A stretch of 32,000 nt of DNA, from positions 630,001 through 662,000 of the forward strand of contig OY970322.1 in NCBI GenBank assembly GCA_963716945.1. Direction: 5' to 3'. Under the pieces are notes generated by a model. That model had not been told where the DNA came from, made no database searches, and saw nothing but the letters and a program-made list of their open reading frames with translations. Source of the DNA: Candidatus Saccharimonadota bacterium. GTDB taxonomy: Bacteria; Patescibacteriota; Saccharimonadia; Saccharimonadales; UBA4665. The position numbers were made by a program, and so were the translations under genes. This document shows, in pieces, positions 1,502 to 17,265 of the stretch (positions are counted from its first letter, which is position 1; each line of letters starts with the position of its first letter).

Positions 1502-1528
1502 GTATATTACTTCCGAGTATCGGCCAGA

Positions 1529-3580: not shown

Positions 3581-3588
3581 GTGATAGA

Positions 3589-4290: not shown

Positions 4291-4326
4291 GTTTACAAAT
4301 ATGACAGAAACAGCTAAAAAAGTCAA
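4291..4326 (-). promoter_or_regulatory. Putative leaderless promoter
   Basis: Minus strand: TTGACT (4326-4321), 17 nt, CATATT (4303-4298), then 7 nt to ATG 4290. Confidence 0.45.
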
Positions 4327-4381
4327 GCAAGGGGCAAGGAGATTATAACAAGTGGACTTCTCAACTTAGTTGTTGTCTGTA

Positions 4382-5245: not shown

Positions 5246-5527
5246 AATAAAGCAGATACCTATAAGCCCTAGCTTAGGCTAGCGGTTCGCAGCCTTTCCT
5301 TGCTTCAACATGTTAACTATACAGGCAGAACGAAACGTCAGGCAATGCTGCCGGTGCGCGGGCACTGCCAGCTTTAATTTACTCTGCGGGTTCGGACTCT
5401 AGGAGGTGGGCTACGACTCTATGCGTAGTGAATAATCTAGTTCCGAAGTCTTTTCTATCGGTGTCGTGAACGCCAAGCTTTCCTGGCTGCGAACAATAAA
5501 GTCTTTGTAAATAATAAAAGGCTTAGT

Positions 5528-5977
5528 TTAACGGCCGATACTTATCATTTGGCCGGCCCCCCACTCGTTTAGGCCGTCTGCCGGCGCTACGCCCATAACA
5601 CTCTCTATACTTCCCGACGGGCCTCTTAATAAAGGCCGAAGCTCCGGTTCGGCTAAGCTTACGTCACCCCCAAGAACCATGGACCAAAATACCTCTTGAG
5701 CCAAACGCGCCCCGTGCATTACCTCGCCCAAGGCGCTTGGGGCTGTCCTTTCGGTATAGGTCTCACCCATTACCGGCACCTGTAGGTAAATTATATCTCG
5801 GAGGAGGGCCTCGCCAATGTAGGGAGGTGAAGTGTCTGCGTAGGCCGGTGCTATGAACCGTACTCCTTCATCCGGCCTTAACCAAGTATCGCTTTGAGCA
5901 TGCAAGCCTGCAGCCGCTTCGGCCGCATCATGCGTAAAGCCTTCTGGCGGGGAAATGCCCTGGTAAGAAACTCCCAT
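5528..5977 (-). CDS. Hypothetical protein (149 aa)
   Basis: ORF with ATG 5977 placed 6 nt after an extended -10 box. No family recognised. Confidence 0.65.
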   Translation of the reverse strand: MGVSYQGISPPEGFTHDAAEAAAGLHAQSDTWLRPDEGVRFIAPAYADTSPPYIGEALLRDIIYLQVPVMGETYTERTAPSALGEVMHGARLAQEVFWSMVLGGDVSLAEPELRPLLRGPSGSIESVMGVAPADGLNEWGAGQMISIGR

Positions 5978-6063
5978 ATCTATATTATATCATATAAATA
6001 CAATATAGTAAATCTTAACTCCTATTCCGGGGCCTGCCCAGATGATTTGGTTATAATTTGATT
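5978..6063. promoter_or_regulatory. Divergent leaderless promoter pair
   Basis: Minus strand: TGaTATAAT (-10 at 5989-5984), then 6 nt to ATG 5977. Plus strand: TATAAT at 6052-6057, then 6 nt to ATG 6064. No SD on either side. Confidence 0.45.
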
Positions 6064-6624
6064 ATGGCCCAAATTATTATCGATAGTAAGCTGACGCTTT
6101 CGGAGGCGTTAAACGGTTCGGCGGCACCCGAAGAGGTTATCGCAGCCCTTGCGATTGTAGACATAAGGTACCTCGGCTTTGATAATAGAATCCATCAAGG
6201 CCAAATAGTAATACACAAAGCGCTGCGAGCCGAAGTAGCCGGCATCTTCAAACAGCTATTGCTCAATAAATTCCCTATCTTTAAGGCCGTGCCGATCGTG
6301 GCTTATGGCTGGGATGACCACAAGAGCATCAAGGACAACAATACCTCGGCTTTTAACTACCGGAACGTGTTCGCCACGAACCGGCTCTCCAACCATTCCT
6401 ACGGCAGAGCCATAGACATCAATCCGTTGGTAAATCCTTATGTGACCGAAGACGGCATAGTCAGGCCCGCCGGGCCGGAATATGATCCCGCCGCCAAAGG
6501 CGCCATCGCCGACGGCGACAAAACCGTAAGTCTATTTCTTGATTGCGGCTGGGAATGGGGCGGCCACTGGAAAGAAGAATACGGCTACGTTGACTATCAG
6601 CACTTTCAGAAACCGGTTCCCTAG
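6064..6624 (+). CDS. M15 family metallopeptidase (VanY / D-Ala-D-Ala carboxypeptidase-like)
   Basis: SNHSYGRAID matches the SxHxxGxAxD zinc motif exactly. The downstream VDYQHF supplies the DxxH ligand. I place the start at ATG 6064 rather than the track's TTG 6058. Confidence 0.8.
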   Translation: MAQIIIDSKLTLSEALNGSAAPEEVIAALAIVDIRYLGFDNRIHQGQIVIHKALRAEVAGIFKQLLLNKFPIFKAVPIVAYGWDDHKSIKDNNTSAFNYRNVFATNRLSNHSYGRAIDINPLVNPYVTEDGIVRPAGPEYDPAAKGAIADGDKTVSLFLDCGWEWGGHWKEEYGYVDYQHFQKPVP

Positions 6625-6657
6625 TCTAGATACTTCTGGGTCTCGAAATTCTTAAAT

Positions 6658-7155
6658 TTAGCTTTGGATTTCCCGTAGCAGCTTATCGCCCACGTTATTC
6701 GTAAAGCCAAGCTCCCGGTATAAGGGTATTAAAGTATTGGTTGGCGCTAATTCCGTAGCTAATCGCTTAGCCCCAAGGGCATCGGCAATCCGAACCCTTT
6801 CCCGAACTATAGTTCTGGCTAAGCCTCTATGCCTATGCCGAGGACTTATCATTAAGTGGCTCAATTCGCCAAAGACGGTTATATGTTTCAACGTTAACAG
6901 CCCTATACCGACAAGCTCGTTCTCGTTTGAGGTTCTTACCCCTACTTCAATAATATGATCCCCATAGATATCAGGACTTCCAGAGGGCCAACTGGCGCGA
7001 TCAAGCCCAGAGCTAGATGGTCCGTTCACTTCCTCGTCGAGTGTACGCAGCTCTTCTCTTCCGGCTTCTGCACCGCTTGCAAAATAGTAACCGACCGGCA
7101 GCTCCAGCCGGTTATAGGTAACTGCAACCTCCGGGCTGATAGCAAGCTGCGCCAT
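6658..7155 (-). CDS. GNAT family N-acetyltransferase
   Basis: The acetyl-CoA binding motif A is MISPRHRHRGLARTIVRERVRIADALG, followed by LYRELGF. I place the start at ATG 7155 (MAQLAISPEV), directly downstream of a promoter module. Confidence 0.85.
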   Translation of the reverse strand: MAQLAISPEVAVTYNRLELPVGYYFASGAEAGREELRTLDEEVNGPSSSGLDRASWPSGSPDIYGDHIIEVGVRTSNENELVGIGLLTLKHITVFGELSHLMISPRHRHRGLARTIVRERVRIADALGAKRLATELAPTNTLIPLYRELGFTNNVGDKLLREIQS

Positions 7156-7194
7156 AATAAACAAAATAATACCACAAAAAGCATTATTTGCATA
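7156..7194 (-). promoter_or_regulatory. Cassette promoter module
   Basis: The minus strand reads TATGCAAATAATGCTTTTTGTGGTATTATTTTGTTTATT-ATG. The TATTTT at 7168-7163 lies 7 nt before ATG 7155. Confidence 0.5.
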
Positions 7195-7205
7195 GGGCTT
7201 ATGCT

Positions 7206-7229
7206 TGGCTCCCGGACTGGATTTGAACA
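7206..7229 (-). repeat. Displaced copy of the tRNA-Asn 3' end (T-arm plus acceptor plus CCA), att-like direct repeat
   Basis: TGTTCAAATCCAGTCCGGGAGCCA aligns with the tRNA 3' end GGTTCGAATCCAGTCCCCGGAGCCA (12878-12854) at 21 of 25 positions, in the same orientation. There is no matching tRNA 5' half upstream. Confidence 0.7.
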
Positions 7230-7299
7230 AATTAAAATAGGCCTGAAATTGGTAAAGAGCTCAACAAGCCATAGGTACATGGCATTATAAGCCAAAATA

Positions 7300-7314
7300 T
7301 GCTATAATATATTT
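7300..7314 (+). promoter_or_regulatory. Putative leaderless promoter (extended -10)
   Basis: TGcTATAAT (hexamer at 7303-7308), then 6 nt to ATG 7315. No SD. Confidence 0.45.
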
Positions 7315-8655
7315 ATGTACCGCCCAGACTTTACAGACTTTGCCCCATATCAGGGTGCGCCTAATGCCGCCGTCGTATCAGGTTTCATTAATTATGGTGC
7401 CAACCACGAGGCAAAAACTGTCCTCAGCGACGTTTATTTGCAGCAGCCAGGCGAGCTGTTGCGCCCAGTAACGGTAGCTAAAACCGTTATCGCCTGGCAA
7501 GGACCTGAGCCCGCGTGGAAGATACCCATTAAAGACGTTATCCAATACAGTGAGCGCAGTTTGGCAAAAGGCGGTATCGTCGAGCCTGGTTTAATCGATG
7601 GTGAACGCGGTCATCAAGTTACTGCCTGGGCAGCAATGGCAAGCCCGGCTGATTTACTGGTGCAGCGGGCCATGGTTGGCTTTTTCAGTAACTGGAGTCT
7701 CGAGTCACCCGAACAATCGGTGCAAAAACTTTATAGGGTTGGCGGTGGTGATCGTGCAAAAGCGCCACTAGTCAGACACCGGCTATATGATTTGCTCTGG
7801 AATAGCACTACTGGTTACTCAATTGAAGGCCTCAACGAAGTCATGGTAAGAGAAGGCCATCACCCAACAACACTGGCAAGGAAGCTTGAGGGTCTGGACC
7901 AGGAAGGGATTATAGAAGTTCGGTCGAAAAGCATCGGTTACAATCCTGTCATGAAAGTCACCGATAGCGAATACCGCCACGTAGCGATCGGCTTCTTAGA
8001 CACTAGCTTGGAAACGCAAGCAGCATATGCTGCCGCTCAAGAACTTGGCATCGACGCCACCATAACTGTTGACGACTTTGTTAATAAGGCTATGGAACAA
8101 ATGCCCGGTGCTGACCCAGTAGTATTACGCAAGTATATAATCGGCAGTTTCAGCGAGGGAACCAATCACTTCCCTGGCTTGCAGCCTGTCGATAGGTTGG
8201 GCATACCGATTTCAGATCTCAGTGTTGTCGAGCTATCTCCTGACGTGCGTCAGGCTGTTGGCGAGCTTGTAATTGGCGTGGGCAAAATTTTAGCCGGCGA
8301 AGGTCTGCTTCCTTATGTTAAGGAAGCGCAAAGAATTATGGGTAACCCCTCGCAAGTGCGCGAGCTAATTGCTAAAGCCGGTAGGTTTTCGGCTGTAAAG
8401 GCTGGGCACTTTCATGGCAGTGAGCGGCTGACTAATCAAATGAGAAGCATTTTGGAAACCGGGCCACAGACTGCTGAGAGTATGAGAGCCGAACTAGTAG
8501 ATCGGTACGGCCGCATGATCGGTCATGAGAGAATACACGCCATTCTGAATGAGCTTGTTAGTACCGAAAACATAGGTACTGCCTATGAACCTGTCCATCC
8601 TCATTCGGCTATCACGCGTAAGGTCTACAAAATGCAGGCTCAGCAGGAAAGCTAG
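7315..8655 (+). CDS. Hypothetical protein (446 aa) with two winged-helix-like segments
   Basis: Long clean ORF. The segments RHRLYDLLWNSTTGYSIEGLNEVMVREGHHPTTLARKLEGLDQEGIIEVRS and QMRSILETGPQTAESMRAELVDRYGRMIGHERIHAILNELV resemble wHTH layouts by eye. No catalytic motif recognised. Confidence 0.75.
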   Translation: MYRPDFTDFAPYQGAPNAAVVSGFINYGANHEAKTVLSDVYLQQPGELLRPVTVAKTVIAWQGPEPAWKIPIKDVIQYSERSLAKGGIVEPGLIDGERGHQVTAWAAMASPADLLVQRAMVGFFSNWSLESPEQSVQKLYRVGGGDRAKAPLVRHRLYDLLWNSTTGYSIEGLNEVMVREGHHPTTLARKLEGLDQEGIIEVRSKSIGYNPVMKVTDSEYRHVAIGFLDTSLETQAAYAAAQELGIDATITVDDFVNKAMEQMPGADPVVLRKYIIGSFSEGTNHFPGLQPVDRLGIPISDLSVVELSPDVRQAVGELVIGVGKILAGEGLLPYVKEAQRIMGNPSQVRELIAKAGRFSAVKAGHFHGSERLTNQMRSILETGPQTAESMRAELVDRYGRMIGHERIHAILNELVSTENIGTAYEPVHPHSAITRKVYKMQAQQES

Positions 8656-8704
8656 GTAGAAGAGCCGGCCACGAAACCTGGCCTGTCTCTGTTGGTGCTT
8701 GGTC

Positions 8705-8734
8705 TGGCTGCCTTTAGTGGACGCACTTCGCAGC
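8705..8734 (-). repeat. Cassette 3' element copy
   Basis: The minus strand reads GCTGCGAAGTGCGTCCACTAAAGGCAGCCA and starts 20 nt after the stop of 8755..9465. It aligns with the copies at 12354-12325, 11919-11889 and 10178-10150. Confidence 0.5.
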
Positions 8735-8754
8735 TTACGTCATGAGTAACCGGA

Positions 8755-9465
8755 TTATCGTGAGGCGATTATCAGTAGACTACCGGCATGACCGCCTAAT
8801 TTTCTTATTATGTCTTCGTGCCTTTCGGCGTTAGTATCGTCGGGCTCGCCAGCTTCGATATCAAATTGAGCCTCGCGCGAAGCGAAGCGCGGCCTTAAGC
8901 CGGCCATCTTTAACATCTCGGCTATGGCTTGGGCATTTCTATCGTAATCAAAAATTACGGCCCGGCCGTCCGGAGCAAGCAGCCTGGCGACTTCGTTGGT
9001 CATAACCTGCTCGTCATGATTATGTTCGCAGCTCGGAGCGGATGATTTATCGTATACGCGGGAAATGTAAACTTCGTTAGCGATCGCGCCGGGCAGGCCA
9101 TACCTTAAATTTTCCTCGGAGGGGTCGTCTAAGTTTCTGCCAAATGACCTTTCCCGTTGGAGGGTTATATTTTCGCCGGCTCTCTGACTTCGCAATCTCT
9201 CAAAAGCGACTTTCGCTCCGAGTTCGTAGTATCCGAAGCTGAAGTTCTCCAGACCTATATAGCGACTTAGCCCGCCGAAATTACGGTTTAAACCGTTGGG
9301 ATGCATGCCGGGACCTATTTCAACCAGGCACCAGACCGGTGCGGCTACTCTGTATTCGGCGTACTCGAATGGATCGATGAGATCGCTTGGATTTATCTCA
9401 AGCGCTTGCCTAATTCCTAATTCCTTGTCGACCGGATTCAAAGCCGCAACCCCAGGCGTTGACAT
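8755..9465 (-). CDS. Probable class I SAM-dependent methyltransferase
   Basis: LVEIGPGMHPNG is motif-I-like, and VARLLAPDGRAVIFDY fits the later MTase strand. I place the start at ATG 9465 (MSTPGVAAL), 6 nt after the module -10. Confidence 0.65.
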   Translation of the reverse strand: MSTPGVAALNPVDKELGIRQALEINPSDLIDPFEYAEYRVAAPVWCLVEIGPGMHPNGLNRNFGGLSRYIGLENFSFGYYELGAKVAFERLRSQRAGENITLQRERSFGRNLDDPSEENLRYGLPGAIANEVYISRVYDKSSAPSCEHNHDEQVMTNEVARLLAPDGRAVIFDYDRNAQAIAEMLKMAGLRPRFASREAQFDIEAGEPDDTNAERHEDIIRKLGGHAGSLLIIASR

Positions 9466-9500
9466 AAACATAAAATACCACAAAACGTGGTATTTGTATA
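9466..9500 (-). promoter_or_regulatory. Cassette promoter module with a perfect 9-bp inverted repeat
   Basis: The minus strand reads TATACAAATACCACGTTTTGTGGTATTTTATGTTT-ATG. The arms AAATACCAC (9495-9487) and GTGGTATTT (9481-9473) are exact reverse complements separated by 5 nt. Confidence 0.55.
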
Positions 9501-9525
9501 GTGATTATGCTTGGCTCAAGATATA

Positions 9526-9561
9526 GGTCTGGGCTAGCTGCCTTTACGTCCCTGGCGCGCC
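9526..9561 (-). repeat. Cassette 3' element, variant copy
   Basis: The minus strand reads GGCGCGCCAGGGACGTAAAGGCAGCTAGCCCAGACC, downstream of the stop of 9581..10042. It shares TAAAGGCAGC..CAGACC with the 8705-8734 copy. Confidence 0.4.
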
Positions 9562-9580
9562 TGATGATTACGTATAGGTA

Positions 9581-10042
9581 CTATTGTACCGGCGGCCAGA
9601 CTTGTTCGGGGTCTCCTTCAATTCGAGCCATAAGTACTTGGTCCATTCCTTGATAGGTTATGCAAGTACTACCGTGAATCGGAAAAGTCGTAAGTCGATC
9701 CCAAGGCATATCAGCCAACTCCGCCGCTCTAGCCAGATGCTCATCCGGACCATAGTCTGATTGTATAAATTCCGCCTTCCATCCTATTTCTCGAGCTACA
9801 CTCTCCAGCGCTTTAGCAAAACCGCCGATTTTAGGCGTAATAAATTCCAAGTTTCTAAAAGCGGCAACAGCAAGCGATGTTTTTATAAGTTCGGCGTTTG
9901 GTAGCCTATCTTCTCCGTTGTCAGTATGGATTTCCAGGATTGCCTTGGCCCACCAAAGTCCTATAGCCTCATATACATCCTTGGCTTCCCCTACGGGCTT
10001 AAGGACTTCTCGTCCGCCTTCAAATCTTGCATCCGCAGCCAT
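9581..10042 (-). CDS. Hypothetical protein (153 aa)
   Basis: ORF 9581..10051 in the track. I place the start at ATG 10042 (MAADARFEGG), downstream of a consensus promoter. Confidence 0.7.
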   Translation of the reverse strand: MAADARFEGGREVLKPVGEAKDVYEAIGLWWAKAILEIHTDNGEDRLPNAELIKTSLAVAAFRNLEFITPKIGGFAKALESVAREIGWKAEFIQSDYGPDEHLARAAELADMPWDRLTTFPIHGSTCITYQGMDQVLMARIEGDPEQVWPPVQ

Positions 10043-10080
10043 AATTATCATATTATATAAAAAACTTCAATAATTGTCAA
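10043..10080 (-). promoter_or_regulatory. Consensus sigma70-type promoter
   Basis: Minus strand: TTGACA (10080-10075), 17 nt, TATAAT (10057-10052), then 9 nt to ATG 10042. Confidence 0.6.
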
Positions 10081-10149
10081 TAATTAAAGGGTAAGATAAA
10101 AAATCCGGCAGCGTGAATGCGGACCGGGTGTTTCGTCGAGTTTGCGATG

Positions 10150-10178
10150 CGGCTCCCCCAGTGGGTGAGCTGCGCAAT
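10150..10178 (-). repeat. Cassette 3' element copy
   Basis: The minus strand reads ATTGCGCAGCTCACCCACTGGGGGAGCCG and starts 3 nt after the stop of 10182..11048. It can form the hairpin GCTCACCC-ACT-GGGGGAGC with one mismatch. Confidence 0.5.
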
Positions 10179-10181
10179 AAC

Positions 10182-11048
10182 TTAGTAAATGGACGGGATT
10201 GCGCGGGCCTGCTCGATTCTATCGATCGCTACTTCGGTACTACCGTCCCAGAAGGCTAGGAGCATTGGCATAATGCTGCCACGCCATCTAACTCCTAGGC
10301 GAAGTGTTGGACAGCCGCTGCCCGAGCTGCATTCTTTGGCCTTTTGTTTGGCCCAGGGCGTTAGATCTACGCTTTCTTGGCGGGCATCTAATACTAAATG
10401 CTCGGGATCTATGACATCATTTGCTCGAGATTCACTCATCAGCCTAGAAGGTATGCCGACAAACTTGCTAAATTCAGGCCGGCCGGGTCTTCCCTCGACA
10501 GTGTCATTTATCATCGCCAGACGAGATATTAATCTGCTGCTATTCCTGACAATTTGTTCATTGGCCGACTGCTCGTAACCACTGTCTTGTAGAAGAAAAT
10601 TAAATATGCTCCGTATAGCTAAATTGGCATCCTGCACGGCTGCACTAGCATTGCGCAGGCAGCCTCTCGCGATGCGGACAGCCTGCTGCTGCGTCGCATC
10701 AATGGAGCCTGCCATGGCCTCCCGGAACGGATTAGTCAATCCATTATCAATTGGGTCCGGAAACCGTCCAAAATAGTAATAATCCCTGCCCATCTCCATC
10801 CAGATAGGTACATATTGGTTCGCAGCTGCACTAGTAGAGCGGCTGAAAACATGATCACTTTTAGACACCGACCTAGCAAGCTCTGACGCAACAGCATAAC
10901 CTAGGGGAGCTAACATGTACGTATCAAAGTCTGGGTAAAGCCGGCCTATTGCATGAGGAGTAGACTTGGCATCTGCTATTCTTTGTTCTAGGTCGTTAGA
11001 AAAAGCTTCTGAGTCAGCAGCTTCTTGCATAAACGCTTCGAAAGCCAT
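10182..11048 (-). CDS. Hypothetical protein (288 aa)
   Basis: ORF 10182..11066 in the track. I place the start at ATG 11048 (MAFEAFMQEAADSE), 6 nt after the module -10. Confidence 0.7.
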   Translation of the reverse strand: MAFEAFMQEAADSEAFSNDLEQRIADAKSTPHAIGRLYPDFDTYMLAPLGYAVASELARSVSKSDHVFSRSTSAAANQYVPIWMEMGRDYYYFGRFPDPIDNGLTNPFREAMAGSIDATQQQAVRIARGCLRNASAAVQDANLAIRSIFNFLLQDSGYEQSANEQIVRNSSRLISRLAMINDTVEGRPGRPEFSKFVGIPSRLMSESRANDVIDPEHLVLDARQESVDLTPWAKQKAKECSSGSGCPTLRLGVRWRGSIMPMLLAFWDGSTEVAIDRIEQARAIPSIY

Positions 11049-11083
11049 AAAAATAAAATACAACAAAAAGCAGTATTTGACAA
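11049..11083 (-). promoter_or_regulatory. Cassette promoter module
   Basis: Minus strand: TTGTCA (11083-11078), 17 nt, TATTTT (11060-11055), then 6 nt to the ATG. It is preceded by AGCC and then GGGAGCCA (11095-11088). Confidence 0.55.
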
Positions 11084-11230
11084 GGCTTGGCTCCCATGAC
11101 GTTGATCAATTGGGACCAGATTAAGTCAGAAATAATAGAGATGTGTCGGGTAGTTAAAACTTCACAGCAGTTTAATATTAAAGAAGCTGAGGGCCGTGGC
11201 TAGAATCCGGGTAAGTATTCAGAGCCGAAG

Positions 11231-11812
11231 TTAAGAACCTACAACTTTACCCGTGCAAATGTTTCTATATTGGCTGGGATTAAAAGTCTGTCCATATTGC
11301 GGGAAATACCATTCAACAGCGTTATAGGACGGTTTGCCCTGGCACATACCTAGATTGAACGCTACGACAGTTGCTTGTTCTGTAGTGCCATCGGCCACAT
11401 CTTCATTACCCATTACGTAGTCAGTCATTCCTGTGCCTGTAGCCTGTGTGCCTCCCCATGACTGCCAGGTTATATTAGTGACTATGCCAGTGGGGTCACC
11501 TCCATTATTGATTATTTGAGGCTTCACGGTGCCGTAACCTTGCTGACCCGTGTCAGGCGGCCCCCATAGCTGCCCAAGTACAGGACTTGGCGTGTTAGTT
11601 GTTGTGTCTGAGCCCTTCTCTGCAGTATTAGAATTGTTGCTGGCAGTAGCCCGCTTTTTGCTTGTAGTTGTAGCGGTTACTGAAATAGGACTTGTTTTGC
11701 GGTCTTTTTGATAAACGTACCAGCCAGCGCCTATTATAAGAACAAGCAGAGCTATTATTGATAAAATGCTAACAACTCCGAAACCTTCTTGTTTACTGTG
11801 ATGTTTGCCCAT
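11231..11812 (-). CDS. Membrane-anchored exported protein (193 aa), unknown function
   Basis: It has an N-terminal TM helix (GFGVVSILSIIALLVLIIGAGWYVY) followed by a Thr/Ser-rich linker. A -10 TACTAT (11825-11820) lies 7 nt before ATG 11812. Confidence 0.75.
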   Translation of the reverse strand: MGKHHSKQEGFGVVSILSIIALLVLIIGAGWYVYQKDRKTSPISVTATTTSKKRATASNNSNTAEKGSDTTTNTPSPVLGQLWGPPDTGQQGYGTVKPQIINNGGDPTGIVTNITWQSWGGTQATGTGMTDYVMGNEDVADGTTEQATVVAFNLGMCQGKPSYNAVEWYFPQYGQTFNPSQYRNICTGKVVGS

Positions 11813-11888
11813 GTCATTTATAGTATCAAACGACCATACTGCAATTGAACCGAATAAATTCCTAGAGATTAATAGAGGCGAGCTTTCC

Positions 11889-11919
11889 TGACTCCCTCCT
11901 AATGGACGAGCTGCGCAAC
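11889..11919 (-). repeat. Cassette 3' element copy
   Basis: The minus strand reads GTTGCGCAGCTCGTCCATTAGGAGGGAGTCA and starts 22 nt after the stop of 11942..12280. Confidence 0.5.
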
Positions 11920-11941
11920 TTTTGTGAAGCAGAATTCATTA

Positions 11942-12280
11942 TTAACTTACATCTGGTGAATGAGGAGGTTCAGGTGCATCAGCAGCATCGAGCAAACGAT
12001 TAAGCTGGTTAATACTTTCTTGTGAACTGAGTCGCTCGATTGCCTCAATGGCAGATTCACCGGTTTGCAAATCTGTTTTTCTATATGGACAAGCCAAGCA
12101 GCCTAGAGTTAAAGCGAGTGTGGCCCTTTGATAATCCGCACTCATTTCGTTATAAGTTATTTCAAAGCCGGTAGGGTATTTGGCACAGACCATATTACCG
12201 TTTGCATTAGAGTATGGTCTTTGTACTACGGCACGTACTTGACAAGTGTCAAACGCTTTTTGAGAGCGACTTTTTTTCAC
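11942..12280 (-). CDS. Hypothetical protein (about 112 aa). The start is ambiguous: GTG 12280, or the conserved ATG 12284, which is out of frame.
   Basis: The ORF body is in the track (11942..12301). The module-positioned ATG 12284 is in the +1 frame relative to the body, across an A7 run (12277-12271). GTG 12280 is the first in-frame start after the promoter. Confidence 0.55.
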   Translation of the reverse strand: MKKSRSQKAFDTCQVRAVVQRPYSNANGNMVCAKYPTGFEITYNEMSADYQRATLALTLGCLACPYRKTDLQTGESAIEAIERLSSQESINQLNRLLDAADAPEPPHSPDVS

Positions 12281-12284
12281 GCAT

Positions 12285-12320
12285 AAAACTAAAAATATCA
12301 CAAAAAGTGATATTTGACAA
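12285..12320 (-). promoter_or_regulatory. Cassette promoter module with a perfect 9-bp inverted repeat
   Basis: Minus strand: TTGTCA (12320-12315), 17 nt, TGTGa-TATTTT (12297-12292), then 7 nt to ATG 12284. The arms AAATATCAC (12315-12307) and GTGATATTT (12301-12293) are exact reverse complements. Confidence 0.55.
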
Positions 12321-12324
12321 GGTA

Positions 12325-12354
12325 TGGCTCCACCTAGTGGACGAGTCTCGCAAC
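12325..12354 (-). repeat. Cassette 3' element copy ending in tRNA-like GGAGCCA
   Basis: The minus strand reads GTTGCGAGACTCGTCCACTAGGTGGAGCCA and starts 10 nt after the stop of 12365..12814. The next promoter module follows after 4 nt. It contains the hairpin TCCAC-TAG-GTGGA. Confidence 0.55.
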
Positions 12355-12364
12355 TGCCAAGTTT

Positions 12365-12814
12365 CTAATATTCTGCTGTTTCATCCTGCGGGAATACCGC
12401 CTTCAATCTTTGAAGAAGAAACCATGCTCGTCTGTCGTCAATGAAATCAGAAAAAGTGCTATTGCAATCCTCATCCATTTCGTCATAGTGCACCCTTCCG
12501 TCATCTTTCAGCGTGATGTGTCCTTCGGCTATTTCATCGTCATGCAGCGAAAGCTGGGCTATGTCGTGATTATTGTAATCCAAAGCCTCGGACGTCTCGG
12601 TCATTAGATAAAATGCATAACGTTTCTGCTCGGGAGCAAATGCCAATCCCGCCAATAGTTTAGGCCGTAACGGCTCAAGTAATATATCAGCTATTCTAGT
12701 GCCAAAGTCTCCCGTGCGGGTTTGGGGATGCTCAAGTGCATTAAATAGGACGAAGTTTCTAAGATCCTGAAGATAATCGCCTTCAAAACGGGGAGCTTCA
12801 TAGACATCCGGCAT
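12365..12814 (-). CDS. Hypothetical acidic protein (149 aa)
   Basis: ORF with ATG 12814, 6 nt after the module -10. It is the first gene after the tRNA. Confidence 0.7.
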   Translation of the reverse strand: MPDVYEAPRFEGDYLQDLRNFVLFNALEHPQTRTGDFGTRIADILLEPLRPKLLAGLAFAPEQKRYAFYLMTETSEALDYNNHDIAQLSLHDDEIAEGHITLKDDGRVHYDEMDEDCNSTFSDFIDDRRAWFLLQRLKAVFPQDETAEY

Positions 12815-12849
12815 AAAACTAAAATACCATAAAAAGTGATATTTGGCAA
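12815..12849 (-). promoter_or_regulatory. Cassette promoter module abutting the tRNA
   Basis: Minus strand: TTGCCA (12849-12844), 17 nt, TATGg-TATTTT (12826-12821), then 6 nt to ATG 12814. The -35 box begins only 4 nt after the tRNA CCA end. Confidence 0.55.
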
Positions 12850-12853
12850 TTTA

Positions 12854-12928
12854 TGGCTCCGGGGACTGGATTCGAACCAGCGACCTAGGCGTTAACAGCG
12901 CCCCGCTCTACCGCTGAGCTACCCCGGA
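12854..12928 (-). tRNA. tRNA-Asn (anticodon GTT), 75 nt, CCA encoded
   Basis: I folded it by hand. The parts are: acceptor TCCGGGG/CCCCGGA, D-arm GCTC-AGCGGTA-GAGC, anticodon arm GGGCG-CTGTTAA-CGCCT, variable AGGTC, T-arm GCTGG-TTCGAAT-CCAGT, discriminator G, then CCA. Confidence 0.93.
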
Positions 12929-12947
12929 ATAGTGATTGAACTTGTCT

Positions 12948-12975
12948 ATTCTAACGGCTTAATAACAGATTGTAA
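12948..12975 (-). promoter_or_regulatory. Possible tRNA-Asn promoter
   Basis: Minus strand: TTACAA (12975-12970), 16 nt, TAGAAT (12953-12948), about 19 nt upstream of the mature tRNA 5' end. Confidence 0.3.
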
Positions 12976-14235
12976 ATGCTCTTGCTGAAGACCGCGCGGT
13001 TTGTTGGTACAATAATTAATGCTATGCAGGATGACGCGCCGAATCCGCCGCCAGATGAACCGACCGTTGAGCCCGTCGACGAACCGACAGACGAAACCGG
13101 CAAATCCGCGGTTACGCCCTTGCCCGGGCCGCAAGAAACGCTACCGGTTCCGGCGCCCAAACCGCCGCGCAACTGGAAGCGATGGCGCAAAGTAGCGGGC
13201 CTCGTAGTTCTGATTATTATCGTCGCGGTTGGGGCCTGGCTGTGGGGCCGGCATGGCGGCCCGCCCAAAAAAGCCGCTTCGACGGCCAGCCAAGCCGTAA
13301 CGATGCCTAAGAAAACTGCGGCGGCTGCGGCCAAAGTCCAAGGCGTCCAGCTCGACCCGAACAAGGATTACGGCAACAAATACGCCAACGGCATCCTGCC
13401 CGTCGGTGACGGCAAATACGTTACGTCCGGCCCTAAGCAGGGCTATGTCTATGCCTGCAGCCAGTATGCCCAGAACCTGTCCGGCGGCCAGGGCGGCGCC
13501 AGTACCCGCGGGCCGTGGTTCACGGATAATAACACCGAGTATAACGTCAACGAGAAGCTGCATGTCGAGGGCAGCGTCATGTGGCAGGCCAGCTTTTCGG
13601 ACGTCCTGTCCGGCGGTACGCGGACTATCATTACTAATGATTTGCCCGACCACCCGACCGGTATTTTCCCGATTATGACGACCGACCCGGCCTACGCTTA
13701 TGACCACAACCCCAATACCATTAAGGGCCAGACCCTGACCTACGTCCTCAATGCCGACCCGGTTTACGGTTCGCCCAGCTGTATGGGCGGCGAATCGGGC
13801 ATCATGCTGACCGGCGTGGCGCTGTTTAACGCCTTTGATGCCGGCGGGCGTGACGCCGGGGCCTGGGAAGTCCAGGACGCGTGCGACGGGCATCCGCAAA
13901 CGGACGGCATTTACCACTACCATACCTTGAGCGCTTGCATCAAAGACACCAGTGTCCGGACCGTCATCGGCTATGCCCTCGACGGCTTCCCGATTACCGG
14001 GCCGGAGGTCGGGCCGAATAATATCCTGACGACGTCGGACCTCGACGAGTGCCATGGCCTGACCAGCCAGATTAACCTCGACGGCAAGCTGGTTACGATG
14101 TACCACTATGTCATGACGGAGGATTTTCCGTACTCCGTCAGCTGTTTCCGCGGTACGGCTATCCAGCCGCCTGACCTGGCGCTAGCCCGGCCAAGCCAGT
14201 CCGGCCAAGGGCAAAAGGCGCCGCCTAAGCCTTAG
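12976..14235 (+). CDS. YHYH-motif protein, membrane-anchored (alternative start ATG 13024)
   Basis: It has a Pro-rich N-terminus, a TM helix (VAGLVVLIIIVAVGAWLW), and then the signature DGIYHYHTLSAC plus a second MYHYVMT. A possible TTGAAC-17-TTAATA promoter lies at 12936-12964. Confidence 0.8.
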   Translation: MLLLKTARFVGTIINAMQDDAPNPPPDEPTVEPVDEPTDETGKSAVTPLPGPQETLPVPAPKPPRNWKRWRKVAGLVVLIIIVAVGAWLWGRHGGPPKKAASTASQAVTMPKKTAAAAAKVQGVQLDPNKDYGNKYANGILPVGDGKYVTSGPKQGYVYACSQYAQNLSGGQGGASTRGPWFTDNNTEYNVNEKLHVEGSVMWQASFSDVLSGGTRTIITNDLPDHPTGIFPIMTTDPAYAYDHNPNTIKGQTLTYVLNADPVYGSPSCMGGESGIMLTGVALFNAFDAGGRDAGAWEVQDACDGHPQTDGIYHYHTLSACIKDTSVRTVIGYALDGFPITGPEVGPNNILTTSDLDECHGLTSQINLDGKLVTMYHYVMTEDFPYSVSCFRGTAIQPPDLALARPSQSGQGQKAPPKP

Positions 14236-14696
14236 CGGACGGATTTGAGGGCGGCAGCCGTGCGGCGGGCGTCGTCGCGGGCCTTGAGGGTTTGGCGTTT
14301 GTCGTAGCGTTTCTTGCCGCGGCCGACCGACAGGCGGAGTTTGATGAAGCGGCCGCCGGTCAGGATTTCCAGCGGGACGATGGTTTTACCCTGTTGTTTG
14401 GCGGCTATGAGGGCTTCGATTTCGCGGCGTTTGGCCAGCAGTTTGCGGGCCCGGGTCTGGTCGGTTTCGTTAATCGGGATGCCGGACGTGCCTGAGATAG
14501 TGGCGTTTATCAGGAAGAGCTCGCCCTGCTTGACGGTGACGTAGGCGCCCCGCAATTGGCCGTGGCCCATGCGCAGGGCCTTGGTCTCGGCCCCGCTCAG
14601 TTCCAGGCCCGCCACCAAAGAGTCGCCGAGCTCGTAATCGTGGCTGGCGCGGCGGTTGGTGATGCGCTTGGTCTGGTGGGGCTTCTTCTTGGCCAT
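14232..14696 (-). CDS. smpB: SsrA-binding protein SmpB
   Basis: The sequence NRRASHDYELGDSLVAGLELSGAETKALR...RARKLLAKRREIEAL...GKTIVPLEIL...GRGKKRYDKR is the SmpB pattern. I place the start at ATG 14696 (MAKKKPHQ). A -10 TACAAT (14709-14704) lies 7 nt upstream. Confidence 0.9.
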   Translation of the reverse strand: MAKKKPHQTKRITNRRASHDYELGDSLVAGLELSGAETKALRMGHGQLRGAYVTVKQGELFLINATISGTSGIPINETDQTRARKLLAKRREIEALIAAKQQGKTIVPLEILTGGRFIKLRLSVGRGKKRYDKRQTLKARDDARRTAAALKSVR

Positions 14697-14760
14697 AACG
14701 CTTATTGTAACTGAGGAGCCGATTATAGACAAGAGGTATATTTAATTATATAATAATTAT

Positions 14761-15300
14761 GTGAACCGTATATTCGCTGAGACCGCAGACTATGCCCGGG
14801 CCGAGTTAATCGATGTTATGTCAGGCGTAGTAACGCGGTTTCCTAGCCTGCGCCATATAAGCGAGAATCTTGATTCGCCTTCTCACGTTTCGGCGCGCTG
14901 GCGTCATTCATCAGTCCCGGCCGCGGCGATTACGAACTGGGTAAGCTACGCGGGTATTGCTGAGTCCGGCCGGCGACCCAAGGACTATCCGGAAGCCGCT
15001 ATACTGGGGATTTCGAAAGAAGAAGTCGATGCTTACGCTGCTGAACATGGCGGCCAGCACGCCGTCGCGTATGTCCTGGGGAGCCGGGTCATTATAGGTA
15101 CCATGCTAGAAGATGAAATCTTCGGCGTCAGTGAGGATGGCGAGCAATACAGAGTGGCGATGGGTATCGGCAAGGGTGTCCTCCAGGCTACGGCCGGGCT
15201 GTACCTACCTCATAAAAGGCTGTGGGTACCATCAGCGCCGATTGAGGATATGGGACGAATGCCGGCTGACCAGGTTCCAGTCACCGTTCCCTTCCTTTAA
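14761..15300 (+). CDS. Hypothetical protein (179 aa)
   Basis: The ORF has a GTG start 6 nt after TATAAT (14749-14754). No family recognised. It ends 4 nt from the convergent hydrolase gene. Confidence 0.55.
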   Translation: MNRIFAETADYARAELIDVMSGVVTRFPSLRHISENLDSPSHVSARWRHSSVPAAAITNWVSYAGIAESGRRPKDYPEAAILGISKEEVDAYAAEHGGQHAVAYVLGSRVIIGTMLEDEIFGVSEDGEQYRVAMGIGKGVLQATAGLYLPHKRLWVPSAPIEDMGRMPADQVPVTVPFL

Positions 15301-15304
15301 ATTA

Positions 15305-16405
15305 TTACTGGTTAGCGGCGAATTCCTGCTTGGCAGTGTTCATCAGGCTGGGGTCGTGCAGGACTTGGGCGCGGTAGTACCAGTATTCGGCGCCCCAGAG
15401 GTCGATGTTGCGCATGCCGGTGGCTTTGCCGTAATTGACGACGGCTTTGAAGCGCTGGGCGTTGAATGACTTGTTCTGCTCGGCCAGGCTGGTTTGGGGG
15501 ACGGTTTTGCCGTCCGGCGCCCAGGCTTCGGCCTGGAGTTCGCCGATCATCATGTCCTTGTGGTCGGCCAGTTTTTGCCAGCCGGCCAGGAAGCCGTAGA
15601 ACCAGGCCGGGAACGGGTATTCCAAATAGCGGTGCGTCACGCCGGCATCCCAGACGCGGCGGTAAATCGAGATGCTGAACATGTCCGGCTGCGGCTGCTT
15701 GACCGGAATGCCGACGGCGTTGTCGCTGCGGGCGACAATAACCGGGTGCTTCGGGTCAAGTTTCTTGACCAGGTCGTATTCGCTGATCAGGCGTTGGCGG
15801 TCGAAGTTGGTGCAAGTGCCGAAACCCTGCAGGAAGTATTCGTTCTCGACTTGGTAGGCTTCCAGGCTGGGCGAATTCTTGTAACGCTGGACGACCTTTT
15901 GCATGAAGGCTTCAAGTTGCGGCTGCCATTGGCTGTCGGGGGCATTGGTATTGACCCAAGACGGCGAGTGGCACTCCGGCCAGCGCGGCTGCCGCAGACC
16001 GACGGTCAGGATAATCTTGGCGTGGGCGGCTTCGGCCTTCTGGAATTCCCAGTCCAGCTGGCTGAAGTCGTACTGTCCCGGCGCCGGCTCCATGTCGCTC
16101 CAGTAGCTGACCAGGCGGAACTGCTTGACGCCGATGCCGATCAGGGCATCCATGGCCTGCTCCGGGTTGACGCCGAGGCTTTGGGCGTAATCGGGGATGA
16201 AGCTGACGCCCAGCTGCAGCGGCTTGCCCGATTCGGTATGGATATACCACTGGGCGATGCCGTACATCACGCTGACCAGCAGGAAAACGATGATAACTAT
16301 AACGCTGACGATCTTGTGCCACCAGTTCTTACGCCAGTAGCGGCCCGGCCAACGTTTTAAGCTGGATGCCAGCCGGTTGATATACATTGGGACAGGCTTT
16401 GCCAT
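15305..16405 (-). CDS. Membrane-anchored TIM-barrel glycoside hydrolase (GH5/GH42-like clan GH-A)
   Basis: It has an N-terminal TM helix (IVSVIVIIVFLLVSVMYGI). VENEYF is an acid/base-type motif, GELQAE is a candidate nucleophile, and the YWSDMEP/QYDFSQLD pattern is typical of cellulase-like barrels. Confidence 0.7.
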   Translation of the reverse strand: MAKPVPMYINRLASSLKRWPGRYWRKNWWHKIVSVIVIIVFLLVSVMYGIAQWYIHTESGKPLQLGVSFIPDYAQSLGVNPEQAMDALIGIGVKQFRLVSYWSDMEPAPGQYDFSQLDWEFQKAEAAHAKIILTVGLRQPRWPECHSPSWVNTNAPDSQWQPQLEAFMQKVVQRYKNSPSLEAYQVENEYFLQGFGTCTNFDRQRLISEYDLVKKLDPKHPVIVARSDNAVGIPVKQPQPDMFSISIYRRVWDAGVTHRYLEYPFPAWFYGFLAGWQKLADHKDMMIGELQAEAWAPDGKTVPQTSLAEQNKSFNAQRFKAVVNYGKATGMRNIDLWGAEYWYYRAQVLHDPSLMNTAKQEFAANQ

Positions 16406-16425
16406 ATAATAAGTTTAAGGTTTCA

Positions 16426-17265
16426 ATGAAAATAAGTATTGTCATCCCAGTATACAATGAAGCGGCCCAGCTTGGGGCCTGCCTGTCGGCGATTGCCGCC
16501 CTGGACGTTGCACCCTACGAAGTGATCGTCGTCGACAATAACTCGACCGACGGGACGGCCGGCATCGCCGCGGCTTTCGGCTTCGTCAAGCTGCTGCGCG
16601 AGCCTAAGCAGGGCGTTGTCCATGCCCGCAACCGCGGTTTCGATGCCGCCCGCGGCGACATCATCGGCCGGATTGACGCCGATACTTTGCTGCCGGCCGG
16701 TTGGGCGGCCCAGGTTCTGGCTATTTTCGAGGACGAAACGGTGAGTGCCGTGTCGGGGGCACCGCATTATTATGATTTCGCCTTGGCCGGCTTGGCTGAC
16801 GCGGCCGACTTTTATGTCAGGGCCCGGCTGGCACGCAAGCTTGGCGACACTAACTTCTTGTGGGGCGCCAACATGGCCGTCCGCCGTTCGGACTGGCGCA
16901 AAGTCCGTTCCCTGTTGTGCGACCAAGGCCAGATGCACGAGGATTTCGACCTGGGCATCCACTTGCAGGCCATCGGCCTGAAAGTCGCTTATGACGAGAC
17001 GCTATTGGCCGGCGTGTCGTCCCGGCGGCTCGATACCAGTTTTGTAGACTATGTCCGCTACACCCTGGCCAGTCCCAGGACTTATGCCTTGCACGGTTTG
17101 CGCAGCCGCCGCCATATGTACCCGGTTCTGGCGCTGTGCTGGTTGATCTACGTGCCGGGCCGCGTGATCTACCGCGGTTACGACCCGGCGACGGGCACTT
17201 TTTCGTGGAACCAATTGCTGGCTGCCGGCAGTTCGCGCGTCGATCCGACCATCAACGTCGCCTAG
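16426..17265 (+). CDS. Glycosyltransferase family 2
   Basis: MKISIVIPVYNEAAQLGACL...YEVIVVDNNSTDGT is the classic GT2 N-terminus, and a DxD-like RIDADT is present. I place the start at ATG 16426 rather than the track's 16387. Confidence 0.85.
   Translation: MKISIVIPVYNEAAQLGACLSAIAALDVAPYEVIVVDNNSTDGTAGIAAAFGFVKLLREPKQGVVHARNRGFDAARGDIIGRIDADTLLPAGWAAQVLAIFEDETVSAVSGAPHYYDFALAGLADAADFYVRARLARKLGDTNFLWGANMAVRRSDWRKVRSLLCDQGQMHEDFDLGIHLQAIGLKVAYDETLLAGVSSRRLDTSFVDYVRYTLASPRTYALHGLRSRRHMYPVLALCWLIYVPGRVIYRGYDPATGTFSWNQLLAAGSSRVDPTINVA

Follow-up and report, generated by a model that had tools for sequence, protein, structure and literature searches.

Terminator-promoter junctions as probable heads of single-gene cassettes in an array at tRNA-Asn of a Saccharibacterium

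The cassette array and its predicted promoter modules

The window, that is, the whole stretch of 32,000 nucleotides that was analysed, comes from a 1.1-Mb contig of a Saccharibacterium and contains a cassette array between SmpB plus tRNA-Asn on one side and DUF1905 on the other. The GC content of the array is lower than that of the flank. The minus strand carries six copies (M1 to M6) of a ~40-bp module, which start at 12849, 12320, 11083, 9500, 7194 and 1501. The features are as follows:

12854-12928, minus: tRNA-Asn (GTT), by ARAGORN (Rfam, 69 bits)
12812-12849, minus: module M1, with -35 TTGCCA, -10 TATTTT and ATG at 12814
12365-12814, minus: cassette ORF 1, 149 aa, no Pfam match
12325-12354, minus: 3' element GTTGCGAGACTCGTCCACTAGGTGGAGCCA (nhmmer, E=1.6e-6)
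12282-12320, minus: module M2, with ATG at 12284 and a perfect 9-bp hairpin (12315-12293, -7.9 kcal/mol)
11942-12284, minus: cassette ORF 2, with a frameshift in the A7 run 12271-12277
11895-11919, minus: degenerate 3' element (..GGAGGGAGTCA; nhmmer, E=7e-3)
11046-11095, minus: GGGAGCCA remnant (11095-11088) and module M3, with -35 at 11083 and ATG at 11048
10182-11048, minus: cassette ORF, 288 aa, no Pfam match
10151-10177, minus: weak 3' element (..CACCCACTGGGGGAGCCG; E=0.9, borderline)
9581-10080, minus: cassette with a 156-aa ORF and a different, consensus promoter (TTGACA-17-TATAAT), common to L160
9463-9517, minus: GAGCCA-AGCATAATCAC linker and module M4 (type B), with -35 TATACA and ATG at 9465
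8755-9465, minus: cassette ORF, 236 aa, no Pfam match
8705-8732, minus: 3' element (TGCGAAGTGCGTCCACTAAAGGCAGCCA), then gaccaagcaccaacagag and a hairpin end-piece common to L147
7153-7230, minus: tRNA-Asn 3' remnant (GTTCAAATCCAGTCCGGGAGCCA, 7230-7208), AGCATAAGCCC linker and module M5, with ATG at 7155
6658-7155, minus: cassette ORF, GNAT acetyltransferase
1529-2065, minus: DUF1905/OmdA gene; in the relatives L162, L046, L132 and L126 it is conserved as the distal border of the array
1463-1501, minus: module M6, an exact match to the consensus of an earlier note on this DNA, with ATG at 1465, heading a 229-aa ORF (776-1465)

The six blocks and ATGs described in the earlier note are all present, and dinucleotide shuffles gave no module match (chance expectation 0 versus six seen). 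The promoter parts are a -35 (TTGTCA or TTTACA), a spacer of 17 nt and a TRTG-type extended -10 (TGTGgTATTTT); a promoter scan of the window listed M1, M2, M3 and M6. In M5 the ATG lies 10 nt past the hexamer. Comparison of the downstream proteins revealed no mutual relationship, in agreement with the note. The ORF start that it had assigned to 12284 does have a module and an ATG, but as sequenced this ATG opens 11 codons only; with A6, ORF 2 reads MREKSRSQKAFDTCQVRAV... and matches a module-led homologue in L123. A diverged seventh copy had also been proposed at 736-708. The family profile misses it at E<=10, and the ATG is ~30 nt off, behind a Shine-Dalgarno-like GAGGA; the site is a remote relative at most, and not leaderless.

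The module family comprises 64 copies from soil and other metagenomes. Most copies were ascertained with a bias, since the pattern used for the metagenome search left no freedom in the right arm or the outer part of the left arm; family counts refer to sequences and not to independent mutations. The copies are clearly homologous, many being identical across 30 nt, and L142 and L122 have private promoter variants in common. Hardly any of the proteins encoded downstream are related to one another. The ATG lies 6-7 nt past the -10 hexamer in 58 of the 64 copies (6 nt in 41, 7 nt in 17), and in 54 of these 58 it begins an ORF that is at least 60 aa long or runs off the contig. An ORF-opening ATG at this distance fits leaderless promoters, and the earlier reading of the modules as leaderless sigma-70 promoters with an extended -10 appears well supported by geometry and comparison. 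Transcripts would have the A of the ATG as their first nucleotide and be leaderless mRNAs without a Shine-Dalgarno site.

The inverted repeat across the promoter spacer

The family consensus forms a perfect 9-5-9 dyad with its centre in the spacer; the 5-nt spacing is kept in most copies. In the window, the two perfect 9-bp palindromes reported earlier, at 12315-12293 and 9495-9473, are exact. The latter, in M4, forms a hairpin of -9.3 kcal/mol followed by a T-run, and is terminator-like by the terminator scan, which flagged no other window module. The arms of M1 (12844-12822) are weak at -2.8 kcal/mol, and the hairpins of M3 (11078-11056) and M5 (7189-7167) and the left arm of M6 are decayed. 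Four of the six modules in the window fold weakly (-2.3 to -4.2 kcal/mol), so most module copies in this genome may have a promoter role only.

The T versus C difference between the two perfect palindromes had been taken as covariation. It does occur in both arms of these two copies. In 59 distinct members of the family, however, this pair is C:G 35, U:G 14, U:A 2 and other 8, and covariation in the stem is no better than in shuffles. When G·U is allowed, 94% of stem cells pair. Left-arm substitutions comprise 50 transitions and 16 transversions, versus 96 and 320 in neighbouring control columns (odds ratio 10.4, p=1.8e-16), and the bias is found both at left-arm A positions (19:2 versus 42:121, p=1e-8) and at C positions (31:14 versus 17:43, p=6e-5). 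By A>G and C>T changes in the left arm, the DNA dyad symmetry is lost and G·U pairs on the sense strand are kept. The left arms AAGTGCTAC, AAATGCTGC and AAGTGCCGT, found in copies outside the search-pattern selection, pair fully with GTGGTATTT via 3-4 wobbles. Left-arm positions are 66-100% conserved (78-100% without column 16), and the linker and discriminator columns beside them are nearly saturated with changes.

The consensus stem has an energy of -9.9 kcal/mol with just three G-C pairs, and T-rich columns lie 3' of it in the family alignment; the T-run would equally resemble the AT-rich discriminator of a leaderless promoter. Meanwhile, unrelated hairpins (-10.6, -9.6 and -10.5 kcal/mol), each followed by a T-run, occupy the same slot in related cassettes. 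In L162, the slot is filled by AAAAGACTTC-TTCG-GAAGTCTTTT with a T-run, both behind the tRNA and behind five or more cassette ends. Another hairpin with a T-run is present at 19 of 39 junctions lacking the palindromic module, compared with 3.1±1.6 in shuffles.

The strand-specific G·U tolerance, the T-run and the unrelated hairpins in the same slot suggest that the repeat is an RNA terminator stem fused to a promoter, and not an operator; the hairpin, a secondary option in the earlier note, is the one favoured by the data. Each module would then be a compact terminator-promoter junction at the 5' end of a single-gene cassette, in which AAATACCAC-N5-GTGGTATTT followed by TATTTTT would form a sense-strand RNA hairpin and U-tract of about -10 kcal/mol. 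This structure could stop transcripts from the tRNA or the upstream cassette, leaving each cassette insulated. The 3' arm of the hairpin would be the extended -10, fixed by promoter function, with the 5' arm kept complementary, so that G·U transitions would be tolerated and true covariation would be absent.

Cassette boundaries and large serine recombinase elements

M1 starts 5 nt past the CCA end of tRNA-Asn. The core ..GAGCCA precedes M1 to M5, being supplied by the tRNA-Asn end at 12854, by tRNA-end-like 3' elements (12354-12325 and 8732-8705) or by remnants (11095-11088, 9517-9512 and 7230-7208). The earlier note had overlooked this sequence ahead of each of the five modules. The preceding cassette is closed by a conserved 30-nt 3' element, GTTGCGAAGCTCGTCCACTAGGGGGAGCCA, whose conservation lies in sequence, without stem covariation. 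An identical tRNA adjoins SmpB in L132 and L160-L165, and its 3' end, ..CCCCGGAGCCA, is the anchor of the cassette array and its putative attB.

In L129, L131, L132 and L160-L165 the flanks are syntenic and the cassette content varies. Homologous cassettes in different contexts of L129 and L126 show homology from just past GAGCCA to the next ..GAGCCA, and L131 versus L161 differ by a single-cassette indel exactly at AGCCA. Homology boundaries between relatives also indicate that modules move intact with the downstream ORF. Judged from these comparisons, the site is a fast-changing integration hotspot present in many Saccharibacteria genomes. The cassette at 9581-10080 shares 82% amino acid identity with that of L160; its homology spans the -35 to the stop codon, and the edges are promoter and stop codon, not GAGCCA.

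L163 corresponds to L164 with an additional 6,262 bp. This insert lies exactly after the tRNA ..GGAGCCA and ends in a 3' element of the GTTGCGAGACTCGTCCACTAGGTGGAGCCA type; between L163 and L164, one flank has 4 differences in 10,590 nt and the other none in 78 nt. The insert encodes a large serine recombinase (LSR) with Resolvase, Recombinase and Zn_ribbon_recom domains, and a rolling-circle Rep related to the Reps of small ssDNA phages. Three further homologues (L166-L168) have the same layout, in which the LSR 3' end overlaps a tRNA gene. The 3' element stands at the far end in all four LSR contexts, and the palindrome is absent from the ends of the LSR elements. The 3' element is the family-wide cassette end and, it seems likely, a P-arm-like att sequence, which in LSR elements would be the P arm of the att site.

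We propose that the array grows by site-specific recombination at the GAGCCA core, catalysed by the LSR of small integrative elements; single-gene cassettes without a recombinase may move in trans or as passengers of LSR elements. By inspection, the 5' sides of small cassettes do not resemble the P' side of LSR elements, so the cassettes are no more than candidate substrates of that LSR. The proposal as a whole, with terminator-promoter junctions heading the single-gene cassettes of an LSR-built array at tRNA-Asn, is put forward with moderate confidence from sequence comparison.

Alternative explanations and known systems

The earlier note had preferred the palindrome as an operator for a dimeric repressor. 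In this reading the protein would sit across the -35/-10 spacer and control the cassettes jointly. The perfect consensus dyad with its mostly constant spacing, a position typical of promoter occlusion, and conservation of sequence, beyond structure, in many genomes would suit such an operator. However, symmetry-preserving double changes are not above chance, and the left-arm changes break the DNA dyad and favour G·U pairing on one strand only, some copies with 3-4 left-arm differences still pairing fully as RNA. In addition, L122 and L130 are shifted in arm spacing and register, unrelated hairpins occupy the slot in other cassettes, and the window cassettes yielded no gene for an HTH or other DNA-binding protein. 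Promoter function already constrains the right arm, so that a conserved left arm can be explained without any protein, and we regard the operator as improbable. A fold of the top strand as ssDNA, serving recombination or replication instead of transcription as in integron attC sites and rolling-circle origins, is quite improbable: the wobble signature suits any single-stranded top strand and the L163 element does encode a rolling-circle Rep, but homology boundaries place the crossover at GAGCCA, upstream of the entire module, which travels intact with its ORF. Moreover, LSR element ends lack the palindrome, the T-run is always 3' of the hairpin, and the same-slot neighbours resemble ordinary terminators, one with a UUCG tetraloop. 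The clear homology of the copies might also mean that they are recent copies of one strong promoter, with a functionless left arm and a palindrome kept by shared ancestry. This we find very improbable, as the neighbouring unconstrained columns are nearly saturated beside a conserved left arm and differ from it about tenfold in transition-to-transversion ratio.

As regards array growth, no dedicated recombinase would be needed if cassettes were exchanged through RecA at the repeated ~75-nt junctions once DNA had been taken up, the LSR prophages merely sharing the tRNA target. Neither the window nor L150, L160, L161 or L162 contains a recombinase gene, one shared cassette (that of 9581-10080 and L160) is bounded away from GAGCCA, and the small-cassette 5' ends are unlike LSR P' half-sites, all of which agree with such a route. 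Nevertheless, the single cassettes are inserted at precisely the point used by the LSR element and end in the 3' element that also terminates it. This 3' element is present at the far end of every LSR context, and its conservation in sequence without stem covariation is as expected of a protein-binding site. We therefore consider exchange of this kind unlikely, though a serious contender.

Extended -10 (TRTGn) sigma-70 promoters drive leaderless mRNAs in Actinobacteria and Deinococcus. The modules share with them the -35, 17-nt spacer and -10, the TG extension, and a predicted +1 that falls on the start codon, without a Shine-Dalgarno site. In contrast, ~40 bp of near-identical sequence here precede dozens of genes with no relationship to one another, spacer and -10 also serve as hairpin and T-run, and module and gene move together as a cassette. 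Like Rho-independent terminators and terminator/promoter insulators, the modules have a stem-loop of about -10 kcal/mol with a U-tract directly 3' of a gene or tRNA, the structure being maintained through G·U; unlike terminators, the stem is A/U-rich with 3 G-C pairs only, and its 3' arm shares its bases with the extended -10 of the next promoter.

The array resembles integron arrays (IntI, attI, attC) and CALINs in its co-oriented, mostly single-gene cassettes of unrelated functions, each ending in a conserved recombination-site-like repeat, in the anchor-proximal position of new units and in the frequent lack of an adjacent recombinase. It differs from integrons in having neither a tyrosine IntI nor attC (no R/L boxes, no GTTRRRY), in its anchor, a tRNA 3' end, in the associated enzyme, an LSR, and in cassettes with their own promoter and insulator. 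The SCC composite islands of staphylococci lie at rlmH (orfX) and are built by Ccr large serine recombinases. As proposed for the array, LSRs insert the DNA at the 3' end of a conserved gene, units in tandem are split by repeated att cores, and a recombinase is missing from many of the units; this LSR and Ccr were compared by Pfam domains only. Here, however, the target is tRNA-Asn (also tRNA-Gln and tRNA-Trp), the lineage is Saccharibacteria, and units go down to 0.5-1.2 kb with one gene. With tRNA-linked islands and tandem prophages, which use tyrosine integrases, the array has in common a tRNA 3' end as attachment site, a GC content below that of the flank and a displaced tRNA-end remnant inside the island (window 7230-7208), whereas its crossover lies at the very end (GAGCCA) and not in the anticodon or T loop, and it combines a serine recombinase with a cassette-scale array.

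Probable promoter modules downstream of the tRNA-Asn gene

Six blocks of the form TTGTCAAATA-N5-TTTTGTGgTATTTTA were confirmed on the minus strand of the window, and dinucleotide-preserving shuffles gave no match. In all six copies, referred to here as modules M1-M6 (about 40 bp each), an ATG lies 6-10 nt downstream of the block.

Modules of the window (all on the minus strand)
M1: block start 12849, ATG 12814; starts 5 nt past the CCA end of the tRNA-Asn gene (12854-12928)
M2: block start 12320, ATG 12284
M3: block start 11083, ATG 11048
M4: block start 9500, ATG 9465
M5: block start 7194, ATG 7155
M6: block start 1501, ATG 1465

The sequence ..GAGCCA stands directly upstream of each of M1-M5. 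The region of about 700-12850, which we call the array because it consists of stacked, mostly single-gene cassettes behind the tRNA-Asn, has a GC content below that of the flank, and its genes are mostly small, co-oriented with the tRNA and of unrelated or unknown functions. A diverged seventh module, placed by the earlier note at 736-708, had to be discarded: the family profile does not detect it, and the start about 30 nt downstream is Shine-Dalgarno-led. The ATG claimed at 12284 is present, but as sequenced it opens only 11 codons, the frame being shifted by a run of seven A (12271-12277). With six A in place of seven, the full 113-aa M2 ORF is restored and aligns with a module-led homologue at L123 (L-numbers denote comparison loci from metagenome and genome searches, mostly of Saccharibacteria relatives). 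The homopolymer sits five codons into the gene and could be a sequencing error, the mark of a pseudogene or a phase-variable switch.

A sigma-70 promoter scan of the window listed M1, M2, M3 and M6, with 9 of 12 matches and a 17-nt spacer; the -35 elements of M4 and M5 are TATACA and TATGCA. TATTTT follows TGTGg or TATGg in all window copies but M3, which has GTTG, and in nearly every one of the 59 aligned copies. In the family of 64 copies, the distance from the -10 hexamer to the ATG is 6 nt in 41 and 7 nt in 17, and in 54 of these 58 the ATG opens an ORF that is at least 60 aa long or continues past the contig end. The proteins encoded behind the modules are almost all unrelated to one another. 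At such a distance, the usual +1 coincides with the A of the ATG, and the reading of the modules as extended -10 leaderless promoters without a Shine-Dalgarno site, with a predicted transcription start at the ATG, is therefore well supported by the sequence. Several core genes outside the array (window 14761, 18992, 16405 and 7315) likewise begin a few nt past a -10-like box and lack a Shine-Dalgarno site, and GGAG motifs are present at operon-internal genes (e.g. window 24214 and 2220). Leaderless first genes may be general in the source organism.

A strict pattern scan of metagenome contigs gave 39 loci, nearly all of them true relatives. The pattern used for the genome collection was too loose, in that the matches listed included AT-rich genomes and ordinary Firmicutes promoters; the useful Saccharibacteria loci among these matches were L015, L038 and L046. 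The module pattern had no match in viral contigs, which rules out a phage promoter family within the viral collection scanned. The whole intergenic unit is about 75 nt long and reads stop..aaaGTTGCGAAGCTCGTCCACTAGGGGGAGCCA-gac-TTGTCAAATACCACTTTTTGTGGTATTTTAtttttATG; a second subtype reads GCCA-AGCATAAGCAC-TATACAAATACC... No RNA family was matched in Rfam by the modules or by the conserved 30-nt sequence that closes a cassette (3' element), either at the gathering threshold or at E<=1, the tRNA alone being matched. In the literature searched, no description of the modules, the 3' element or the array was found, an absence that is not proof of novelty.

The inverted repeat across the promoter spacer

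The perfect palindromes at 12315-12293 (M2) and 9495-9473 (M4) are exact on re-check, and the palindrome, being the family consensus, is more than a chance feature of these two copies; however, the covariation claimed for it is not above that of shuffles among the 59 distinct modules (alignment A1). At the position cited for covariation, the pairs are C:G in 35 modules, U:G in 14, U:A in two and other in eight. When G·U is allowed, 94% of the stem cells in the alignment pair. The left arm carries 50 transitions and 16 transversions versus 96 and 320 in the control columns (linker, -35, loop, discriminator and post-ATG), giving an odds ratio of 10.4 (p=1.8e-16; counted per sequence, not per independent mutation). 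The bias is seen at A positions (19:2 versus 42:121) as well as at C positions (31:14 versus 17:43). Read on the sense strand, each such left-arm change preserves pairing as G·U; on the opposite strand, it would give an A·C mismatch. In addition, AAGTGCTAC, AAATGCTGC and AAGTGCCGT, from copies outside the search pattern, pair fully with GTGGTATTT via 3-4 wobbles. The right arm, which is the TRTG extended -10, hardly varies, and for most copies it was fixed by the search pattern, an ascertainment bias.

After the stem, T is the majority base in six of columns 34-40 (54-100%), and column 35 is mainly A. The consensus stem has an energy of -9.9 kcal/mol (fold z=-3.4). Within the window, a strong stem is confined to M4 (-9.3 kcal/mol) and M2 (-7.9 kcal/mol), the other four copies being weak; the stem has only three G-C pairs, and a terminator scan of the window flags only M4. 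Other cassettes have, in the same slot, unrelated hairpins of -9.6 to -10.6 kcal/mol followed by a T-run. Overall, a hairpin plus T-run is present at 19 of 39 junctions without a palindromic module, compared with 3.1±1.6 in shuffles.

Of the two options in the earlier note, a hairpin or a dimeric repressor operator, the hairpin is favoured by the wobble-preserving changes of the left arm and by the unrelated hairpins with T-runs in the same slot. Most likely, the repeat is an RNA terminator stem that overlaps the promoter and would end transcription from the preceding cassette. Because this stem overlaps the promoter, the left arm would be conserved without covariation, and a repeat that looks like a covarying operator can instead be a terminator stem under such a constraint. 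Binding of the palindrome by a dimeric repressor is improbable. The consensus is a 9-5-9 dyad, as an operator could be, but L122 and L130 depart from it in register or loop length, double changes are not in excess, and left-arm transitions that destroy the symmetry of the duplex are tolerated; moreover, Pfam revealed no HTH or other DNA-binding domain among the window ORFs of at least about 150 aa. A further candidate function of the palindrome, that of a recombination crossover, was rejected: the entire module moves with the downstream ORF and homology begins at GAGCCA, so the crossover is not in the palindrome.

In L162 (10591-16130), the palindromic module is replaced, behind the tRNA and behind at least five cassette ends, by AAAAGACTTC-TTCG-GAAGTCTTTT, a highly repeated hairpin with a UUCG tetraloop (-10.6 kcal/mol) that also occurs at about position 190 of L122. 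At several L162 junctions, the next gene has a longer leader and an AGGAG-like Shine-Dalgarno motif. The dyad of the palindromic modules also spans the spacer of some Clostridia promoters of the GTDB scan (L078, L048, L025 and L069; TTGACAAATACCACTTTTTGTGGTATTAT and ..ATCACATTTTGTGATATTAT), for which the search pattern had left the tetramer of the left arm free. Convergence on one terminator-in-promoter design may account for these dyads, as may chance.

Cassette boundaries and the variable locus

Pairwise comparisons place homologous cassettes in differing surroundings. In the cassette shared by L129 and L126, homology runs from just after GAGCCA to the next ..GGGGGAGCCAAGA; L142 and L122 have private promoter variants in common downstream of unrelated sequence; by contrast, the cassette common to window 9581-10080 and L160 is bounded by its own promoter and stop codon. 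The first cassette after the tRNA in L131 is the second in L161, and the two loci are set apart by one [linker-module-ORF-3' element] unit, about 640 nt long, whose insertion point is exactly AGCCA. The 3' element, which ends in ..GAGCCA, is conserved as sequence without stem covariation (53 copies) and is read as an att arm. It was also considered as a structured T-arm/acceptor mimic, since the consensus folds; however, GAGC of the outer stem is fixed in the 53 copies while its partner GCTC varies to GTAC, GTGC or GTTC. A conserved RNA helix was therefore rejected, and the element is treated as a putative sequence-specific site. At window 7208-7230, within the array, a piece of the tRNA-Asn 3' end survives as a 23-nt remnant (GTTCAAATCCAGTCCGGGAGCCA; 2 nt deleted), directly followed by a AGCATAAGCCC linker and M5. 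Similar remnants were found in L127, L147 and L162, and the presence of such tRNA ends within arrays agrees with recurrent recombination at that site.

The close relatives of the window SmpB are named Candidatus Saccharibacteria or Patescibacteria. The block ATP synthase...CobA-AAA_33-SNase-GT2-GH42-like-SmpB-tRNA-Asn is kept in L129, L131, L132 and L160-L165, and in these loci the gene content past the tRNA-Asn varies from genome to genome. The far flank of the array is marked by a DUF1905/OmdA gene. SmpB directly adjoins the tRNA in L132 and L160-L165; in this genome only, a 419-aa YHYH-domain gene (window 12976-14235) lies between the two.

Modules and 3' elements in three related arrays
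L160: 8 modules
L161: 5 modules and 7 3' elements
L162: 7 3' elements and 0 palindromic modules

Recombinase elements and comparison with known systems

L163 carries an insert of 6,262 bp (10591-16852, GC 0.43) that L164 lacks; outside it, the two loci show 4 differences in 10,590 nt upstream and 0 in 78 nt downstream. The insert lies exactly after the tRNA ..GGAGCCA, between this sequence and gaccaaggg, and ends in GTTGCGAAGCTCGTCCACTAAGGGGAGCCA, the core being repeated at the far end. It encodes a large serine recombinase (LSR) of 492 aa with Resolvase, Recombinase and Zn_ribbon_recom domains, a rolling-circle Rep that is 33-44% identical to the Reps of 5-9-kb ssDNA phages (bajarodino viruses and Ralstonia filamentous phages) and a GIY-YIG protein; it also contains an internal GGAGCCA junction followed by a small passenger cassette. 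The insert probably represents a Saccharibacterium prophage of inovirus-like type. The anticodon or T loop of the tRNA was rejected as the crossover point of this insert, whose far end has no displaced tRNA half and whose junction is exactly after GGAGCCA. The four differing bases (L163/L164 10543-10555) swap the anticodon stem of the tRNA-Asn in a compensatory manner (GGCGC/GCGCC to GTGGC/GCCAC), and the second allele also occurs in L129 and L148; the swap might reflect gene conversion linked to the insertion.

The LSR has more than 1,000 homologues. In three further contexts (L166-L168), the 3' end of the LSR gene overlaps a tRNA gene (Asn twice, Trp once), with a 3' element 3.4-9 kb away. 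Two natural insertion polymorphisms (L163/L164 and L161/L131) fall at the same point, and the LSR is associated with tRNA and 3' element. The LSR ORFs run into the opposite-strand tRNA gene (L163 10549-10590; L166-L168 near 11440-11510), and their last ~14 to ~22 codons, depending on the locus, are tRNA antisense, so that integration completes or alters the C-terminus of the recombinase. An LSR at the array junction is absent from the window and present in the relatives L163 and L166-L168. From these arrangements, we infer that the LSR acts on the cassette and tRNA sites. The 5' ends of the small cassettes are unlike the P' side of the LSR elements, so that cassettes without a recombinase may travel as passengers, by alternative att pairings or by homologous exchange. 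Mid-array, a 446-aa ORF lies on the opposite strand (window 7315-8655, plus strand); considered as a recombinase, it had no Pfam match, and a weak (24%) relative lies at the end of the L161 array.

Three known kinds of element come together in the unit, and the resulting arrangement is not seen in any one of them by itself. Extended -10 leaderless promoters and intrinsic terminators are both known, but in the module both would use the same bases. The cassette array resembles an integron; however, no Phage_integrase domain (IntI) was found either in the window or in the L150 and L160-L163 flanks, the 3' element is linear and, by inspection, lacks a complementary partner or attC features, and each cassette has its own promoter module rather than being promoterless with a common Pc. 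A resemblance to SCC composite islands lies in the LSR at the 3' end of a conserved gene, present here in relatives, and precise insertion at such a 3' end with a short repeated core is seen in L163/L164 and L161/L131. We tentatively propose, at somewhat under even chances, a previously undescribed, integron-like gene-capture platform of Saccharibacteria, in which cassettes of the form [terminator fused to leaderless promoter]-ORF-[30-nt att arm ending GAGCCA] would be stacked at the CCA end of tRNA-Asn, and of other tRNAs, by a family of LSRs acting in trans from small ssDNA-phage-like elements. Each captured gene would thereby be insulated and would need no ribosome-binding site for its expression.

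The Saccharibacteria, which are ultrasmall epibionts, have genomes of about 1 Mb, and to our knowledge little is known about their gene gain and expression control. If about 40 bp indeed both terminates transcription and starts it without a leader, the module could be a portable part for bacteria that are hard to engineer, and the short attachment core of this integration hotspot together with the candidate recombinase family is a possible tool for site-specific integration. The cassette pool appears to turn over fast, and comprises a phosphotransferase-family (APH) protein, acetyltransferases, methyltransferases, glyoxalase-like enzymes, deaminases and many unknowns; speculatively, this cargo may reflect life on antibiotic-producing hosts. 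The cargo with Pfam matches (window 2220-7155, the L160-L162 arrays and L150) consists mostly of small-molecule-modifying or detoxification-type enzymes, namely the APH phosphotransferase family, GNAT, SAM methyltransferases, DJ-1/PfpI, glyoxalase-like 3-dmu-9_3-mt, cytidine-deaminase-like, RibD_C and NUDIX; many cassettes are without a known family. At the contig edge of L150, zeta-toxin and type I R-M genes (with a fused M-S gene) flank the array.
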